Below the pieces are notes generated by a model. The model was given only the letters and a program-made list of their open reading frames with translations, did not search any database and was not told the origin of the DNA. DNA of 60,585 nt. Origin: a candidate division CPR2 bacterium GW2011_GWC2_39_35. Its GTDB lineage: Bacteria; Patescibacteriota; CPR2. Of this stretch, positions 23,620 to 45,066 are shown piece after piece. The position numbers and the translations under genes were made by a program. How positions within the stretch are numbered: position 1 is the first letter of the stretch; each line of letters begins with the position of its first letter. The DNA lies in NCBI GenBank assembly GCA_000995065.1, contig LBWX01000002.1, positions 1 to 60,585 of the forward strand. Reading direction: 5' to 3'.

Positions 23620-25383
23620 CTATGCTTTCGGAGTTTCCGAATCACTCGGCTTTTCAACTACGTTGCCCGCTTTAAAATAAGCATTTAAGACATATTGATG
23701 AACCATGCGATGGGTATTAAAGAAAGAAGCGTTAATAGTAATGGCATTTTTCATGACCTTTACCCAAGATTTGCGATCTTTGTAATAAAACCTTACTATC
23801 ATTCCTAATTTCTTATAAAAATCATCCAATTCTCTTTGCTCGGCCGTTTCGCCGCTACAGCGATAATTTTCTTCCCCGATTGCCCAGCCGGTTACTCCTT
23901 CGATATGCCCCTCAATCCACCAGCCGTCTAAGATACTAAGGCTTGGGATACCGTTATGAGCCGCTTTCATGCCCGAGGTACCGGAGGCTTCCATCGGCCG
24001 CTGCGGATTATTAAGCCAAATATCTACTCCGGAAGTTAGATACCCGGCCAGCTCCATATTGTAATTTTCTAAAAAAGCCACTTTTATCTTTAAGTTCGGA
24101 TCTTTTACCTTCTCTATAACTTCTTTTAGAATTCCCTTGCCTTCGAAATCTTTTGGATGAGCCTTTCCGGCAAACACAATCTGAATCTTGCCGGAACGAC
24201 TTATGATATTTCTTAGAGCCGCTTCATTCTTAAAAATAAACATCGGCCGTTTGTATTGAGTGAATCTTCTGGCAAAACCGATGGTAAAAACGTTTTCTTC
24301 AAAATTCTCATTCGTTTTCTCATTTATGATTTCAATCAGCTTTCTTTTAGCTTCCAGATGTGCATCCCAAACCTCGTCAGAAGGAATACCCCAAGCCGAT
24401 CTTAAAGTAAAAGGATCCTCCCTCCAGCCAGGAATATATTTATCAAAGACTTTTTTAAAAGGTTTTGAGGTCCAGGTAACAGAATGAACCCCGTTTGTAA
24501 TATGATCAATCTCACTATCACCAAACATATCCCTGGAAACTTCTCCATGCTTTTTAGCAACCCCGTTTACATAGCCAGAATACATCAGCGCCATTTTGGT
24601 AACATTAAGATTGCCATCAGCTACCGCCGCTTCTACCATGTGATACGGATAATAGGCGCCCATAAAAGATTTGACTTTATCAAAACTAAAACGGTCATGG
24701 CCTGCCGCTACCGGCGTATGAGTCGTAAAAACACACATTTTCTTTACGAGTTCCGACTTATATTGCCAGCCAAATTCAGTTTCTAAAGCCGTTTTTGAAA
24801 GAAGCTCTAAGATAAGGAAGCTGGCATGACCTTCATTTAGATGGTACTTATTTATGACGGTATACCCTAAAGCTTGAAGCATTCTAAAACCACCGATACC
24901 AAGAATAATTTCCTGAGCTAAACGGTAAGACTCATCGCCACCATAAAGATGTTTCGTAAGAGATTGGCACCACTCCTCATTATGATCAAAGTCCGTATCC
25001 AAAAAATAAACTGGTAAGGTATATCCGCCAACACCTTTAACTTCTCTCTTAAAGGCCCTGACTTTTACCTCTCTATCTTGAATCCATATCGAAACAATCT
25101 CCGGACAAAGCGTGGTATAACCATGAGGCTCCCAAGGATCGGCTTCCTCAATCTGATTTCCATCTTTATCAATAACCTGTTTAAAATAACCGTCTTTATT
25201 TAAAAGGGTGACGGCTACCATCGGGATGTTTAAATCGGCACAAGCCTTAATAGTATCCCCGGCTAAAATACCCAAGCCGCCGCTGTAATTTGTCATTTTA
25301 GATGTTAAACCTATTTCCATAGAGAAATAGGCTATTGTTACATCTTCTTTATTAAAAGAATCTTTGGGTGCATATTTGCACAT
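23620..25383 (-). CDS. glgP: Alpha-glucan (glycogen/maltodextrin) phosphorylase, GT35
   Basis: EASGTSGMKAAHNG pyridoxal-phosphate lysine motif. N-terminal GGLGILAGD. Confidence 0.8.
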   Translation of the reverse strand: MCKYAPKDSFNKEDVTIAYFSMEIGLTSKMTNYSGGLGILAGDTIKACADLNIPMVAVTLLNKDGYFKQVIDKDGNQIEEADPWEPHGYTTLCPEIVSIWIQDREVKVRAFKREVKGVGGYTLPVYFLDTDFDHNEEWCQSLTKHLYGGDESYRLAQEIILGIGGFRMLQALGYTVINKYHLNEGHASFLILELLSKTALETEFGWQYKSELVKKMCVFTTHTPVAAGHDRFSFDKVKSFMGAYYPYHMVEAAVADGNLNVTKMALMYSGYVNGVAKKHGEVSRDMFGDSEIDHITNGVHSVTWTSKPFKKVFDKYIPGWREDPFTLRSAWGIPSDEVWDAHLEAKRKLIEIINEKTNENFEENVFTIGFARRFTQYKRPMFIFKNEAALRNIISRSGKIQIVFAGKAHPKDFEGKGILKEVIEKVKDPNLKIKVAFLENYNMELAGYLTSGVDIWLNNPQRPMEASGTSGMKAAHNGIPSLSILDGWWIEGHIEGVTGWAIGEENYRCSGETAEQRELDDFYKKLGMIVRFYYKDRKSWVKVMKNAITINASFFNTHRMVHQYVLNAYFKAGNVVEKPSDSETPKA

Positions 25384-26035: not shown

Positions 26036-27058
26036 ATGGAAAAGGAAATAGAAGTTCCTATTAATACAACTAATTCTAATGAAATCGCAAACGACGGTTT
26101 CTCGCCAAATGACAGAGAAAAAGAGCTGGCCAACAAGATTTATAAATCCGAAACCTTAGATGAGCTTAGAGAAAATCTAAAGATGGCGATTGCCGAAGGA
26201 TTTAACAATAGCGCAATCCTCGCCGAGAAAGCCAGTCTCAGAAATAAGGAACTTACGGAAAATAACACTCAAAAAGTAGATACCCCACCCGAAGAACCTA
26301 AAACAGATAAAGCGATTGAAGATGAACTCATAATTGTCCCAACTACCACTGAATCAGAGATTCCGACAGCAAATGAGAGCGCTGACGATAGCCAAAACAC
26401 TATAACTAATGATGCCATCGATAATCCAACAATACTCGAACCTTCCAAAGAAGGCAACGAAGATGATAATTACAACTCGACTATAAAGGTTATGCCTCAC
26501 CAAGATTCTCTCGCAGAAGAAACATCGGAAAAAAATCCAGAAATAACAGATGGTCCAATCGACCTTCTTTCCATGAATGAAACTGAGGTGGTCTCAGAGG
26601 ACGACGATCTAGACACTGAGACTCCGATTCCAATTACACCAGAAACTGATGAGAAAGCAGAAGAACTCAAATTAGACACTACCATCTTGCCTTCAGCGGA
26701 AGAAACAGTAGTCCCAGCGTCAGAAAGTCTAACTTTAGAAAATAATGATTTAGAAATGACTGCAAATATCCGGAACTATGAACCCATTGCAGAAGAAACC
26801 GCGGCAAATGCAGGTTCGGATGTGGATTTGGATGCCCAAAAACTTGACTTTAATAAGCTCATGGGCGAATTAGTCTACATGGCAGCCGAAACAGATAATT
26901 TAACAGAAACCGATAGAGACAAAAGCGAAGATCTGGGCGACATGCTAAAAAAGATGTGGGCCGAAATTTGTCAGTCTACGCCCCGCGAAGATCATAAAAA
27001 CGACACCGAATACATCGAACATATAATTGACGATCAGATTAAAAAGATCAAGGTGTAA
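26036..27058 (+). CDS. Highly acidic, low-complexity hypothetical protein
   Basis: SD GGAGGG 6 nt upstream. 340 aa dominated by D/E/T/N/P, with no signal peptide. Confidence 0.5.
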   Translation: MEKEIEVPINTTNSNEIANDGFSPNDREKELANKIYKSETLDELRENLKMAIAEGFNNSAILAEKASLRNKELTENNTQKVDTPPEEPKTDKAIEDELIIVPTTTESEIPTANESADDSQNTITNDAIDNPTILEPSKEGNEDDNYNSTIKVMPHQDSLAEETSEKNPEITDGPIDLLSMNETEVVSEDDDLDTETPIPITPETDEKAEELKLDTTILPSAEETVVPASESLTLENNDLEMTANIRNYEPIAEETAANAGSDVDLDAQKLDFNKLMGELVYMAAETDNLTETDRDKSEDLGDMLKKMWAEICQSTPREDHKNDTEYIEHIIDDQIKKIKV

Positions 27059-27322
27059 ATAGAGAGGTACATAAAATACCTCCTGTAGTCGATCCCATTA
27101 TTACCTTTTCCATTTTTCCCTAAAAAACTCTTCTGAACTTAAAAGCCAATTATAAAAGTGCGTTTTGTAAGTGTGTAGTTAACCACTTATTTAAACGTAG
27201 ACCCCAAAAAAATTCACGCCCAAATTGAAGATGACTATTCATAACCCTAAGCGATCCCACCCCAAAAAACCTTTTTTTCGAACCTAGACACTCTAAATTA
27301 TAAGCAGTCGCAACAAAAAGCC

Positions 27323-27351
27323 TTGATTTTTATTAAGCTTATGGTTATACT
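27323..27351 (+). promoter_or_regulatory. Sigma70-like promoter TTGATT-17 nt-TATACT
   Basis: -35 at 27323-27328 and -10 at 27346-27351. The predicted start at about 27357 coincides with the 5' end of the structured region. Confidence 0.5.
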
Positions 27352-27356
27352 ACTTG

Positions 27357-27718
27357 GCGGCAGACGTGGTAGGCGAAACTTTTCACTACATATGGGGTAC
27401 AAAGGGTTTTATCGGATCAAAAGGTAATGCACCCTCTCGCCACATTCTATTTCTTTGTTTCGATATCTAAGTGACAACAGTCATTTGGCTAAACAAAGAA
27501 GTAGTACACGAGAGACAATTACCCAAACCAACAAAGCCGTCTAAGACTGCAACAGATTAGACGGCTTGCACTGATAGAACCACCCCCACGTCTGCACCAA
27601 AATTCCGGCCATGTTAGAAACATGTTAATCCGGCAAGGATTAACAAGGAAAGAATGGTGGTTTATAGATTAGTAAGGCATAATTGCCTCACTTGCAACTC
27701 ACCACCCTTCTTTCTTTT
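27357..27718 (+). ncRNA. Unclassified ~360-nt structured RNA candidate with its own promoter and intrinsic terminator
   Basis: Closing helix GCAGACGTGG (27360-69) / CCACGTCTGC (27586-95). Nested helices: 27423-28/27518-23, 27434-39/27509-14, 27453-60/27491-98, 27534-44/27557-67. Terminator GAAAGAATGGTGG...CCACCCTTCTTTC-TTTT at 27648-27718. No ORF of 60 aa or more on either strand. Confidence 0.5.
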
Positions 27719-27804
27719 AAAAACTAACCTCTGGCCTTTATTTTTTAAAAAACTGATGAAGAAACCAGACAAAAAAATTTACAAACTTTACAACAGACTA
27801 TCCC

Positions 27805-27848
27805 TTACTTAACAATATTTAAACGATCGTTTAAATATTGTTAAGTAA
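27805..27848. repeat. Perfect 44-bp palindrome with no loop
   Basis: TTACTTAACAATATTTAAACGA|TCGTTTAAATATTGTTAAGTAA; the halves are exact reverse complements. Confidence 0.95.
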
Positions 27849-27858
27849 TTTATCCGAC

Positions 27859-28083
27859 TTAGGATATCACTGCTTTTTCGATCCTTTTCACGTTTATTTT
27901 ACGAGGCGTAATTTTAAGTAGAATTAAGGCAGATGCAGCTCCAAGAACCGACAGAAGAGAAAAGGCTTCCTCATTTCCAAAAGTTTGCGCCAAAATTCCC
28001 GCAACCATCGGTCCAACTATGTACCCGACGTTAAAAGCCGAATCCTCAATCTCCTTTGAGATAACCGTAAGAACTAAAATAGA
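27859..28083 (-). pseudogene. C-terminal stump of a transporter gene (MFS-like last two helices), lacking its 5' part
   Basis: Open 74-codon frame ...SAFNVGYIVGPMVAGILAQTFGNEEAFSLLSVLGAASALILLKITPRK...* preceded by an in-frame TAA. No plausible start or upstream continuation. Confidence 0.4.
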
Positions 28084-28155
28084 TTAAATCATTACTGTTA
28101 AGCGTTGTGTAGTATAAACTCGAATAAAAAAGACGAAGCTATAAAAAATTTGAAT

Positions 28156-28185
28156 AAAGAGGGGATTGGGGCGAATCCCCTCTTT
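28156..28185 (-). terminator. Rho-independent terminator of the 28194..28658 gene
   Basis: AAAGAGGGGATT-GGGGCG-AATCCCCTCTTT 8 nt past the stop, followed on the minus strand by ATTCAAATTTTTT. Confidence 0.7.
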
Positions 28186-28193
28186 ATCTTTTC

Positions 28194-28658
28194 TTAGGCT
28201 TTCGTCTTCTTTGGAATCAAAACTTGAATCGTACTGGCGTTCTCAAATACTTCTTTAACAAGCTTGCCAACTTCGCCAGCACTCGGATGAACAAGCACTT
28301 TGATTTCATCCAAAAATACCGTAGGGCAGTGAGGGCAAATTGATTGTCCGCTCGTTTCCAGATAGCTTACCGGGATCACATGTAAACAGTTACCGCATCT
28401 TGCTACTACTGGTATGGTCAAACTCAATCCCTCAATCTGAGACCTAATCATTGCTGTCACCTCGGATGTCGTCAGGCAATAATCACCGTCAAAGCTAATT
28501 ATTGCTGAGGTTATTCCTGCAATGTCCGAATGCTCTAAGCTAAGGCTTTTTCTAGGAAATAGCCTAGCGGACACCGGACTATCAACAACAATGTGGCCTC
28601 CTTTCGTTTCTCCTTGAATCTCCTGAATCGGTTGCAACAGTGTAAAACAAGTATTCAT
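28194..28658 (-). CDS. Hypothetical protein with C-terminal CxxC...CxxC zinc ribbon
   Basis: CGNCLHV...16 aa...CPHCP. SD GGAGG upstream of the ATG. Confidence 0.5.
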   Translation of the reverse strand: MNTCFTLLQPIQEIQGETKGGHIVVDSPVSARLFPRKSLSLEHSDIAGITSAIISFDGDYCLTTSEVTAMIRSQIEGLSLTIPVVARCGNCLHVIPVSYLETSGQSICPHCPTVFLDEIKVLVHPSAGEVGKLVKEVFENASTIQVLIPKKTKA

Positions 28659-33226: not shown

Positions 33227-34339
33227 TTATGCCATGAACCTCAAAAAAGCCCCGATACCACCCTCTCTTTTTAGATCTTCGCTATTGGTAAATTCCACAA
33301 CACCTTCATCCTCTAAAGCCTTTTCGATGATGACTTCATCAAGATGAATTTCTTTTACGGCCCTACTGCCACAGCTACAAGGAATCTGCATCTCATAACT
33401 GTCGCACAAAGAACATAGGTAACCCTCTGCTTTAAAATCCTCACTCACTATAAGCATCCCAACTTCCTTTTTATTTAGAGCCTTTAACATCTCCTTTAAA
33501 CCAAGAACCGCTTTTTTATGTTTCTTGGCGGTTGTTATCAGATTTTTAGCGTCAACCTCCTCGCTATGCTTCACTTTTCTATTTAAAAAATCATTTGTCT
33601 TCTCTTCGATCAAGTTAACATTACTTCTAATATACAATTCATCCGTACCAATTACTTTTTCTTTTAAAGACTTGGGAAGAAGGTTTAAAAAATTTTCCGT
33701 TAAATCATGATGGCCAAAGATTACCCAATCATTTTTATTATAATAATTATAAATTTTCTTCATTTTACTTGTCGCCGTCTTAAAATGCCACAAGATATGA
33801 TCCTCCACATGTCGCTCCCATTTCATCTGTGACCAACCGCCTCTTTTAATTCTTCCCGGCACATCGCTTTGAATCTCATTTCGAAAGATTATCTCTCCTA
33901 AGGTGTAATCAAAAAATTTGGCTTTTTTAGAATCAATTAGAAGAATGTTAACATCGGGGTGCTTTAAAGCCACCTCTTCCAGATAGGAAATGTAAGGATG
34001 CTTGGCAAAAATAAGCCTTGTCTCCACCGGAATCTTTAGTTCAAACTTCTTGATGTCCGAATCGAATCCCATAATAAACACGCCTCGATCCGACGCGGGC
34101 AAATTTTCGAACTCCCGCCAAAAATTCTCCCTGAATTTTGTGTAATTTTCTCTGGTCTCGCCATGCTTCGGCAAAGATTTAGCAATTTTCTGGAAGGATT
34201 TCCTGATAAATGCATTATCCTTTACATTTTGATTAAGGTCGCGGTGGTTGGTATTTAGATAGAGGTTAATAAATATATTCCCTTTGGGGACTTTTTCAAC
34301 AATCTCTTTTATTTCTTTTAAGATCTCTTCTTGGCTCAT
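33227..34339 (-). CDS. Bacterial eRF1/Pelota/Vms1-like (VLRF1/baeRF-type) release-factor homologue with zinc-ribbon insert
   Basis: RGGWSQMKWERH parallels the eRF1 GGQ / Vms1 GxxQ loop (RGGQSALRFARL). C-terminus EGGIGAFLRF matches eRF1/Pelota domain 3 (GGIAAILRY). Insert CSLCDSYEMQIPCSCGS. The start lies somewhere in 34339-34378. Confidence 0.65.
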   Translation of the reverse strand: MSQEEILKEIKEIVEKVPKGNIFINLYLNTNHRDLNQNVKDNAFIRKSFQKIAKSLPKHGETRENYTKFRENFWREFENLPASDRGVFIMGFDSDIKKFELKIPVETRLIFAKHPYISYLEEVALKHPDVNILLIDSKKAKFFDYTLGEIIFRNEIQSDVPGRIKRGGWSQMKWERHVEDHILWHFKTATSKMKKIYNYYNKNDWVIFGHHDLTENFLNLLPKSLKEKVIGTDELYIRSNVNLIEEKTNDFLNRKVKHSEEVDAKNLITTAKKHKKAVLGLKEMLKALNKKEVGMLIVSEDFKAEGYLCSLCDSYEMQIPCSCGSRAVKEIHLDEVIIEKALEDEGVVEFTNSEDLKREGGIGAFLRFMA

Positions 34340-34656
34340 CTTTTCTTCCTCGCCTTTCCCATCCATTTCCCAAACCAAAAACGGTTCTTTAGGTTATCCT
34401 TTTCTTCCGTAAGATGAATATATTTTCCTAACTTTCTCCTTAGAAGCACAATTCGATGCCATGGCGTTTGCAAATCACTCATACTAAAATAATACCTTCT
34501 TAAGGATTAATTGTATTCGTTCAGGGTGGCAAAATATTTTGACTTTTATATCTAAACTTCCTAAATCCCCTTACCTAGTTTTTAGATAATCATATTTTTT
34601 TACATTCTTAGAACATCAAATTACAAGTCGCTCTTCTACAAAAAAATTCCCTTCCT

Positions 34657-43929: not shown

Positions 43930-44091
43930 CTGACTCCTAAACTCCTTTTATCCGGTTTGCAGATATTCTTATTTTAACAGTAACGGACCCCTGCCGGCTA
44001 TTATTAAATAACGCTTTTCCCCCTACGACAACATTAACGCACAAATTTAGCCACAGATTGCGATAAAGAAATTTTACCCCAATAAATGGGA

Positions 44092-44433
44092 AAGCTCACA
44101 CATTCAATAATCGAAAGGTGAGCTTATAGGCTCAGATAATTCCACCCAGGTGATGATTATCTGTTAGTTTGCGGTTGGTGAACCGGTATGATAGCGTTGG
44201 ACGCGATATCATGGGTTGGTTCACCAACTTGCTTGAGGTGGCACATGTTCTCAGATCCGAAGATCTGCTAACATCCGGGCGGATCCAATATTAATCTAAA
44301 GGATCAGGTTGTTGGCTGGATCCGCCGCTAAGGAGGGTTGCACGCGCAACCGAGCCTACCGAGGGTAGGCATTTATATAATCTAGCGATTGTCGGGAATA
44401 AAGGTGCTTTAATGCTCTAATCGTACGATTAGA
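44092..44433 (-). ncRNA. Hairpin-dense structured region: a candidate long 5' leader of the GT2 gene or an independent ncRNA
   Basis: Eight perfect stems in plus-strand coordinates: 44092-99/44118-25; 44134-40/44156-62; 44174-84/44218-28; 44252-67; 44278-86/44318-26; 44336-51; 44354-70; 44416-33. On the minus strand one loop reads UUCG. No ORF of 60 aa or more. Confidence 0.45.
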
Positions 44434-44496
44434 CTTACAAAAACGCCCAACATGTTTACCGCTAGGATAAAGTACTAACCAAAACTGCGTATCGAG

Positions 44497-44525
44497 AGTT
44501 TACCACATCTTCTCAAAAAAGTCAA
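44497..44525 (-). promoter_or_regulatory. Sigma70-like promoter TTGACT-17 nt-TAAACT on the minus strand
   Basis: -35 at 44525-44520 and -10 at 44502-44497. Would start a transcript at about 44490 that runs through the structured region toward the GT2 gene. Confidence 0.4.
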
Positions 44526-44653
44526 TACTAAATCCGGGGAGCCCGCAACCGCCACCCTTAGCTGATTAAATGAGTAAGACGACATTTGTTTGAAGCTGAA
44601 GTAAAATTGCTTTACTGTCTGAACTTTTCTAAGTGATGCGGGATTACCAATAG

Positions 44654-44884
44654 TTACCTATCCATATCCCTGTCAGAATCTCTAAAGTATTTCCGAAATG
44701 CCCATCTTTTGTAACGCCTAGCCTTAGTGAAGGCAAGCAAAATGTAGGCCCCGACTAATATTAAAAGAAGTGGCCATAAAATATCTAAAAAACTAACCGG
44801 AAGAGTAATTAGATTTAAGTTTGCCAGAAGATAGATCAGGCCGATAATAAGAAGGGCTGTGCCAATTAACATATTTGACTCCAC
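44654..44884 (-). CDS. Small two/three-helix membrane protein with basic tail
   Basis: LIGTALLIIGLIYLLANL...ILWPLLLILVGAYILLAF then KARRYKRWAFRKYFR. Confidence 0.45.
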   Translation of the reverse strand: MESNMLIGTALLIIGLIYLLANLNLITLPVSFLDILWPLLLILVGAYILLAFTKARRYKRWAFRKYFRDSDRDMDR

Positions 44885-45066
44885 TAATTAATAAACTTAA
44901 ACTTATCTTAAGAAACTGGCAAGAGATTTTCATTGTCTAAACAAACAAACCTATAGCACTCTAAAAAATAATAAACCGTTTTAGTACGCATTTGATAAAT
45001 ATTTACTTCTGGTAAATAACTAATAAATTCCTTAACCCCTAACTTTATGATAAAATTAAGCCTGAA

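Follow-up and report, generated by a model that had tools for sequence, protein, structure and literature searches.

The non-coding RNAs of retrons (msr-msd) have their own promoter, a length of ~150–250 nucleotides (nt), terminal a1/a2 repeats that pair the two ends and several hairpins, one of them long and near-perfect. RNAs of the 6S/Ms1 type stand alone at ~200–300 nt and combine a long closing rod and a long irregular terminal arm with an asymmetric junction that bears a hairpin on its 3' side. In ribonuclease P (RNase P) substrates with tRNA-like ends, such as tmRNA, the 4.5S precursor and phage stable RNAs, A-CCA comes directly after a terminal helix of 7 bp or more, and this arrangement is recognised both by bacterial RNase P and in 3'-end trimming. 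Large riboswitch and T-box leaders present a promoter, a large multi-helix domain closed by a P1 helix, competing hairpins and a hairpin with a U-run. Miniature inverted-repeat transposable elements (MITEs) and other palindromic elements (Correia, ERIC, BOX and the IS200/IS605-derived palindrome-associated transposable elements, PATEs) are 150–400 nt long and non-coding, with terminal inverted repeats, almost exclusively Watson–Crick pairing, very stable transcripts and a location in variable spacers. Features of all of these recur in a ~360-nt non-coding candidate RNA unit at 27357–27718 (+ strand) in contig LBWX01000002.1 of the uncultivated groundwater bacterium GW2011_GWC2_39_35 (candidate division CPR2; assembly GCA_000995065.1), of which we analysed a stretch of 60,585 nt, here called the window.

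The reading that we favour, tentatively and with less than even confidence, is that of a lineage-restricted, independently transcribed, rigid and stable non-coding RNA gene on the + strand, which would act as a scaffold or decoy. We rank it above, in descending order, a DNA-level remnant, a 3' untranslated region (UTR), an orphaned leader and the RNA half of a split system. An RNA gene here is plausible, if unproven, and, as a prediction from a single sequence, it is a lead and not a finding. Groundwater bacteria of the candidate phyla radiation type have tiny genomes with scant room for non-functional DNA, and a 360-nt element that folds ten standard deviations beyond chance, has putative transcription signals on both sides and lies outside the 4,227 families of Rfam is a concrete candidate for a lineage-specific RNA. 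Were it a palindromic remnant, it would document, together with a second spacer at 44 kb, that structured junk is gained and kept at sites of rearrangement.

A branched fold far beyond chance, outside the known RNA families

On the + strand, 27357–27718 folds with a minimum free energy of −135 kcal/mol, compared to −78.5 ± 5.5 kcal/mol for 100 dinucleotide-preserving shuffles (z = −10.4), none of which equals it. All the main helices have pair probabilities of 0.95–1.0, the centroid is near the minimum-energy fold, and the fold stays the same when 300 nt upstream and 150 nt downstream are added (27040–27870 folded whole, ~830 nt). In a sliding scan of the window, using 240-nt windows with folding energy regressed on G+C, 27361–27600 (+) ranked second of ~1,000. 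Given the shuffle z-score, the pair probabilities, the stability of the fold to context and the scan rank, the structure is real and far beyond chance.

The core domain (27360–27595, 236 nt) is closed by helix P1, in which GCAGACGTGG (27360–27369) pairs with CCACGTCTGC (27586–27595) 216 nt away; the minimum-energy fold uses 27360–27368/27587–27595, extendable to 10 bp. This closing helix and the four nested ones named in a preliminary description of the locus, which was made from the sequence alone, are all present where it had placed them, and to these the minimum-energy fold adds P2 (GGGGU/ACCCC, 27394–27398/27582–27586), P2b (GGUUUUAUCGG/CUGAUAGAACC, 27405–27415/27571–27581), a side hairpin on the 5' side and the apical helix of the long arm. 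P1, P2 and P2b have in common an uninterrupted 25-nt 3' strand (27571–27595), forming a coaxial rod (probabilities 0.99–1.0) whose 5' strand bears a side hairpin (GUAG..CUAC, 27369–27389, probability 0.97), branching between P1 and P2, and a 6-nt bulge, ACAAAG. The rod leads into a three-way junction of P2b, P3 and P4 with A/C-rich linkers (AUCAAAA, CAAACCAACA and GCA). P3, the long arm (27423–27523, 101 nt), has four stacked helices of 6, 6, 14 and 9 bp with probabilities of 0.98–1.0: GGTAAT/ATTACC (27423–27428/27518–27523), CTCTCG/CGAGAG (27434–27439/27509–27514), a 14-bp helix that includes CTTTGTTT/AAACAAAG (27447–27460/27491–27504) and the apical 9-bp helix, capped by the loop AACA; the internal loops are GCACC/ACA, CCACAUU/UACA and UCGAUAU/CU. 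P4, the short arm (27534–27567, 34 nt), is a perfect 11-bp hairpin, AAGCCGUCUAA/UUAGACGGCUU (in DNA letters AAGCCGTCTAA/TTAGACGGCTT, 27534–27544/27557–27567), with a 3-bp tip. Only 6 G.U pairs and 3 single mismatches occur in ~130 pairs overall, and the loops are 49% A and 8% G.

The host spacer (27059–28193, 1,135 nt) lies between a gene for a 340-amino-acid (aa) protein (26036–27058, +) and one for a 154-aa protein (28194–28658, −). It holds no open reading frame (ORF) of at least 60 aa, as had been noted earlier; the longest has 52 aa. For this ORF (27654–27812), a Shine–Dalgarno-like AAGGA and the AUG lie within the 3' hairpin of the unit, and the reading frame crosses the U-run. It contains no transmembrane stretch, was predicted by the gene finder of none of the assemblies and has no genuine homologue among 1.84 billion representative proteins, a summed weak match to an 11-fold repeat protein being dismissed as an artefact. 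A type I toxin mRNA of the hok-like kind, in which a highly folded message with a sequestered ribosome-binding site encodes a small hydrophobic toxin, was rejected given the lack of both a transmembrane stretch and a genuine homologue. The concatenated six-frame translation matched nothing at E ≤ 10 among 5.8 billion proteins.

No Rfam family reached its gathering score anywhere in the window, and at E ≤ 10 the only matches in 27000–28000 were chance ones of microRNA type, on a 44-bp palindrome at 27805–27848. The preliminary description, unable to match the unit to tmRNA, RNase P RNA, signal recognition particle (SRP) RNA, 6S RNA or any riboswitch, had called for this Rfam search, and its outcome bears that judgement out, with none of them matched even at E ≤ 10. 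ARAGORN likewise reported no tRNA or tmRNA in the window; across its whole 60.6 kb we detected no tRNA, tmRNA or Rfam-recognisable RNA. A tmRNA was further discounted because the closing helix has A-U, and not G3.U70, as its third pair, and because the 17 nt preceding the 3' strand cannot form a T-arm. The ACCA that follows the closing helix (27596–27599) is indeed there, but to see a tRNA-like element in it was an over-reading: nothing tRNA-like exists beyond the helix and A-CCA, and the T-arm is missing. Moreover, ACCA may be just part of a longer imperfect inverted repeat, TTGG-CG-GCAGACGTGG / CCACGTCTGC-A-CCAA, in which CCAA pairs with TTGG at 27354–27357. For RNase P RNA (P4 core GGAAAGUCC with ACAGAA-type strands), a short likeness to AUAGAACC seen by eye is not significant. 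The short arm, a perfect helix without internal loops, speaks against SRP RNA, and the three-way junction with a 5' strand of 7 nt against 6S RNA. A riboswitch or T-box leader was set aside also for want of a regulated gene downstream in the same orientation. Literature searches on structured RNAs in such bacteria returned nothing relevant.

Putative transcription signals and strand

A promoter-like site, TTGATT-17-TATACT (27323–27351, +), ends 9 nt ahead of the first base of the closing helix, and predicts a start at ~27357–27359. The scan recovered this site, which the preliminary description had taken for the unit's own promoter, with optimal spacing, but at 9 matches of 12, a score that is weak alone: such sites number ~3 per 1.5 kb in regional shuffles, or ~1 per 500–900 nt per strand. 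We estimate the probability of its falling in this position by chance at roughly 1–2%.

Between the core and the 3' hairpin runs a linker (27596–27644, +), made up, in this order, of ACCA, AAAUUCCGG and two small hairpins that overlap in part, CAUGUU/AACAUG inside CCGG/CCGG and UGUUAAUCC/GGAUUAACA. These had been described as mutually exclusive; they do overlap, but only in part, and shortened forms coexist in the minimum-energy fold with probabilities of 0.53 and 0.96. To take them as riboswitch-like was an over-reading.

The unit ends in a hairpin followed by UUUU (27645–27718, +; AAGGAAAGAAUGGUGGU/ACCACCCUUCUUUCUUU, with an inner hairpin at 27671–27692; probabilities 0.92–0.99), which is a putative, atypical terminator. 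The preliminary description had proposed a 13-bp terminator stem with a T-run here. A hairpin and a U-run are present, but the hairpin is 73 nt long, with an interrupted stem of 16–17 bp (27645–27661/27701–27717) around a 39-nt interior and only four U after it. An intrinsic terminator would have a G+C-rich stem of 5–14 bp with a short loop and at least five U directly after it. In the same spacer the scan did call a textbook terminator, at 28153–28188, which lies 440 nt off and serves the neighbouring 154-aa gene.

Internal G.U pairs outnumber 1×1 A.C mismatches 6:1 on the + strand (5:0 in the core), as against 1:6 on the − strand (one-sided binomial p ~0.06). G+C is 0.38–0.48 within the unit and 0.24–0.35 in the flanking spacer, which we count towards an RNA gene on the + strand. 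The A/C-rich loops were not counted as strand evidence, because the regional strand skew gives the same bias. The transcription signals, the G.U excess and the raised G+C thus favour the + strand. The proposal of a discrete unit with its own promoter and terminator therefore stands as to strong structure, lack of coding capacity and + strand signals, but with a promoter of 9/12 and an atypical terminator.

A perfect, AT-rich 44-bp palindrome (27805–27848; halves TTACTTAACAATATTTAAACGA and TCGTTTAAATATTGTTAAGTAA), unique in the window, lies 90 nt past the unit and 10 nt past the stop codon of a convergent transporter gene fragment. It may serve as a bidirectional terminator or bind a protein, and it is the exact point at which two Logan assemblies break.

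Conservation, genomic context and rival explanations

More than 20 contigs in ENA, NCBI (GCA_000995385.1, GCA_001771075.1), JGI and Logan assemblies of Rifle-type groundwater carry the spacer, all of them 100% identical over its 1,135 nt. Since it is identical in so many independent contigs, the locus is genuine and stably maintained, and no assembly artefact; for the same reason, it offers no variation in which compensatory changes could be counted. Strains of the population diverge by just 0.14% elsewhere (L093 versus L092), with the spacer still 100% identical.

The collection of homologues by BLASTN and structure-aware searches envisaged in the preliminary description yielded no relative, and identical copies only. 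Neither the 50,697 phage nor the 72,556 plasmid records searched with the RNA by blastn gave a match. Exact and degenerate DNA patterns gave only chance matches in IMG/VR, to an ordinary terminator hairpin (L087) and a coding region (L088). A purine/pyrimidine-coded pattern found nothing in JGI metagenome contigs, a weak negative because that search also missed the organism's own locus, which is on a JGI contig (L102; 3300025011, Ga0209000_1011953) that we found via protein look-up. We built a covariance model (R1) from the single sequence and its minimum-energy structure and searched the window and the relatives' contigs with filtering switched off, and a further 1.39 Mb from other loci at the default filter settings. 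The model recovered itself alone in the window, and only generic hairpins in the other two sets. Neither the 60-kb window and the ~9.5 kb that follow it (of a ~1-Mb genome) nor the relatives' contigs yielded a second copy by blastn, pattern search or covariance model.

The 340-aa protein encoded upstream of the unit, an orphan, is acidic and of low complexity; two conserved domains of ~75 aa, one N-terminal and one C-terminal, enclose a variable linker rich in Asp, Glu, Thr and Pro. Pfam, PHROGs and PADLOC give it no match, and very large databases yielded only three distant relatives (P0002, L007/L090 and L091). Following its gene by synteny, relatives' contigs stop 36–92 nt past it (L089, L091) or enter an IS200-like tnpA (L007, L090). 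The latter two belong to the closest genome, CG2_30_37_16, in which the orphan homologue (L007 822–2033, −) is followed by a canonical terminator 60 nt past the stop, ~470 nt of unrelated spacer and the tnpA at the contig end. This tnpA (L007 1–230, −; L090 6840–7002, +) carries the motif ..YHLVWTSKYRGKVL.. and has in front of it a hairpin that occludes the ribosome-binding site (RBS); both contigs end inside the gene. This spacer of CG2_30_37_16 is evidently a site prone to insertions.

Downstream of the unit and convergent with it is a fragment of a major facilitator superfamily (MFS) transporter gene (27862–28083, −), comprising the C-terminal 74 codons (Pfam MFS_1, E = 1e-6) with an intact stop codon (27859–27861 region) and lacking the N-terminal part. 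It had been supposed that the RNA sits where the transporter was truncated and so may have arrived with a mobile or rearranged segment, but the link to the truncation is not supported: the breakpoint that removed the N-terminal part is at ~28084–28150, roughly 370 nt beyond the end of the unit, and the RNA, lying past the intact 3' end of the fragment, is not at the breakpoint. The terminator of the 154-aa gene is directly upstream of the fragment. The synteny search found no relative of the fragment, and the reading frames of the spacer contain no other gene remnant. The 2-kb segment made up of the orphan gene, the RNA and the MFS fragment is lineage-specific and rearranged.

As the preliminary description had it, no reverse transcriptase (RT), recombinase, TnpB/IscB or Cas gene is adjacent: in a Pfam search of all ORFs of at least 100 aa in 16.8–38.8 kb, none of these, and no transposase or IS110 recombinase, occurs within ~10 kb. 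The Pfam-recognisable neighbours are housekeeping genes (GH57, glycosyltransferase, prephenate dehydratase, aminotransferase, glycogen phosphorylase, ROK kinase, CYTH, a TPR protein, a two-component system and others). PADLOC gave nothing significant for five flanking ORFs (four without a Pfam match), its sole listing being PDC-S06 at E = 0.034 on a 303-aa ORF, and a PHROGs search of the flanking unknowns produced nothing of substance. Glycogen phosphorylase (23620–25383, −) has one close relative, at 80% amino-acid identity (L007), where gene order is not kept; its next-best matches (50–56%) are spread across archaea and many bacterial phyla, which suggests that the glycogen gene cluster was horizontally acquired. 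A 383-aa protein (33227–34378, −) joins a domain like the archaeo-eukaryotic release factors, of the bacterial type (baeRF family 10, E = 6e-20), to a C-terminal L7Ae/L30e RNA-binding domain (E = 8e-7), an unusual fusion. We rejected the candidate RNA as a kink-turn partner of this L7Ae-domain protein, as it has no kink-turn motif and the gene is 5.5 kb off.

For an independently transcribed RNA gene speak the excess of the fold over chance, its persistence in context and its scan rank, the G.U excess, the raised G+C, the lack of coding capacity and of protein relatives, the maintenance of the locus in more than 20 contigs, and the placement of a promoter-like site just before the first helix and of a hairpin with a U-run after the last, both on the + strand. 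Several observations weigh against it. No homologue was found by any route, hence there is no covariation, and the nearest relative is without the RNA in the ~820 nt readable after its orphan-gene homologue. The reverse strand folds almost equally well (−130.8 kcal/mol, z = −7.7), so thermodynamics cannot fix the strand. The near-total Watson–Crick pairing in long, perfect helices of 9–14 bp is equally typical of young DNA palindromes, and the A/C-rich loops are explained by the regional strand skew. At the ends of the unit, the basal inverted repeat reaches 4–6 nt upstream of the proposed start, and the 3' hairpin is non-canonical and was passed over by the terminator scan.

Some of these points are what would be expected of a DNA-level palindromic remnant, the foremost rival, which we nevertheless regard as unlikely. 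In that case the locus would come from a mobile element that has decayed or is non-autonomous (MITE- or PATE-like, IS200/IS605-derived for instance) or from local inverted duplications; it would have no function as RNA, and its fold would be a by-product of nested inverted repeats. Such an origin would suit the scarcity of G.U pairs and mismatches, the strong folding of both strands, a terminal inverted repeat that can be extended to TTGGCGGCAGACGTGG/CCACGTCTGCACCAA, the rearranged, lineage-specific segment around it, the IS200-like tnpA with its RBS-occluding hairpin in the corresponding spacer of the closest relative, and the existence of a second hairpin-rich spacer in the window (44050–44400). 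It fits poorly with the single copy in the DNA searched and with the absence of any transposase remnant in any frame. Nor do the ends behave as those of a MITE or PATE, since a terminal repeat of 10–16 bp is present but no direct repeat, and hence no target-site duplication, at either possible boundary. In place of a simple rod of terminal inverted repeats, the layout branches into independent arms and bears a bulge and a hairpin on one side only, and the 6:1 ratio of G.U to A.C favours one strand, the same that carries the promoter-like and U-run signals.

The second spacer (43930–45066, 1.1 kb) contains a strongly structured non-coding region at 44040–44450, the top-ranking one in the sliding scan, with a folding energy of −145 kcal/mol and z-scores of −6.4 (+ strand) and −7.2 (− strand). 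This region holds a run of near-perfect hairpins, for example one of ~27 bp at 44171–44233, GGGCGGATCC..GGATCCGCC, GGTTGC..GCAACC and GCCTACC..GGTAGGC. No Rfam family matches it at E ≤ 10, and its sequence is not similar to that of the element at 27.4 kb.

Less probable again, and improbable in our view, is that the domain forms the structured 3' UTR of the upstream orphan gene, as a co-transcribed 3' stabiliser or the source of an RNA clipped from it. The domain has the same orientation as that gene and begins 300 nt downstream of it, and the scan found no canonical terminator in the stretch that separates the two. When the longer context is folded, the 3' end of the ORF (27043–27054) can pair with 27320–27331, and the base helix continues past the putative start in the upstream direction. 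The orphan genes of relatives likewise have structured 3' regions. Those regions, however, are unrelated in sequence, and that of L007 ends in a canonical terminator 60 nt past the stop. In the window itself, a small hairpin (GAGGUA/UACCUC) and a U-rich tract directly follow the orphan-gene stop, and the well-spaced promoter-like site stands exactly before the domain.

An orphaned cis-regulatory leader, with a P1-closed sensor and an expression platform whose downstream gene was lost, or which controls read-through antisense to the convergent MFS gene, strikes us as quite improbable. The order of parts (promoter, closed 240-nt domain, overlapping hairpins, hairpin with U-run) is that of a leader, and the convergent gene encodes a transporter; transporters are a class of gene commonly under riboswitch control. 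In truncated transcripts ACCAAAAUUCC can pair with GGAAAGAAUGGU, in competition with the 3' hairpin: in those ending at 27700, ACCA..UUCC pairs with GGAA..UGGU, a weaker competitor that does not go beyond the linker. If the 3' strand of the core (GAACCACC) is made to pair with GGUGGUUU as an antiterminator, however, the penalty is 35 kcal/mol, and given this cost of invasion the core looks like a rigid body and not a switch. Its helices are also far longer and more perfect than those of known aptamers, no Rfam riboswitch or T-box matches at E ≤ 10, the transporter gene is already a fragment, and there is no gene in the same orientation downstream, the next genes being on the opposite strand.

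Weakest, and very improbable, is the RNA part of a protein–RNA system whose partner was lost or is encoded elsewhere (a retron msr-msd, a template of a defence-associated reverse transcriptase (DRT), a transposon guide or bridge RNA, or a divergent 6S-like RNA): a closing inverted repeat around several hairpins, including long perfect ones, in ~240 nt behind a promoter-like site of its own recalls the retron a1/a2 RNAs, and the long closing rod, the long terminal arm and the asymmetric junction with its 3'-side hairpin are, from general knowledge, loosely 6S-like, but no RT, TnpB, IscB, IS110 recombinase or Cas domain lies within ~10 kb, the flanking unknowns have no significant PADLOC match, no Rfam family, 6S and HEARO included, matches at E ≤ 10, and the 7-nt 5' strand of the junction falls far below a 6S central bubble. 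Of the individual candidates, a retron or DRT template RNA was rejected because no RVT domain occurs in the ORFs searched (the closing repeat and long hairpins are retron-like; the topology is different, and no branching-G context could be assigned), and a TnpB/IscB omega RNA or IS110 bridge RNA because no such gene lies within ~10 kb and no HEARO or IS605-type Rfam family matches.

Proposed mode of action and comparison with known systems

If the locus is an RNA gene, RNA polymerase would initiate ~7 nt past the TATACT box, at ~27357, and the nascent RNA would fold into a rigid Y of ~240 nt, both ends of which would be locked in the 25-bp coaxial rod (P1-P2-P2b), with the side hairpin and the 6-nt bulge. 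The rod would be capped by the three-way junction carrying the 101-nt and 34-nt arms. The transcript would end either with the long 3' hairpin and its U-run, near 27718, or 90 nt later, at the AT-rich 44-bp palindrome. Buried ends and very stable helices would make for a long-lived molecule, and the exposed A/C-rich junction strands, the bulge and the internal loops would be its likely contact surfaces. On the strength of these buried ends, stable helices and exposed junction and loops, we propose that such an RNA would most probably act in trans as a protein-binding scaffold or decoy, rather than as a base-pairing regulator or a ligand-sensing switch. In a bolder and more doubtful form of this proposal, it would found a new class of stable, independently transcribed ~240-nt RNAs in ultra-small groundwater bacteria, evolving so fast or so restricted that relatives would come to light only through sampling at the genus level, in which a 25-bp rod ends in a helix resembling the tRNA acceptor with ACCA, maturation would proceed through RNase P and 3' trimming, and the product would serve as a protein-binding scaffold or decoy.

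Each of the described systems with which we began departs from the candidate in turn. A retron has its RT, of which there is none within 10 kb here, and the candidate has an extra coaxial P2/P2b between closing helix and arms and no recognisable branching G. Compared to 6S/Ms1-type RNAs, with a bubble strand of ~13–20 nt, it has 7 nt in the 5' strand of a genuine three-way junction, and it has no conserved genomic context. RNAs with tRNA-like ends share with it the terminal helix and A-CCA, but it is without a T-arm, a D-arm with GG, G3.U70 or a tag reading frame. Unlike large riboswitch and T-box leaders, it has neither a downstream gene nor an Rfam match, and its core is rigid and hyper-stable. 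MITEs and other palindromic elements resemble it in size, in terminal repeats and in nearly exclusive Watson–Crick pairing, whereas the candidate is single-copy in the DNA searched, lacks a target-site duplication, and is branched and strand-asymmetric in its G.U:A.C ratio.

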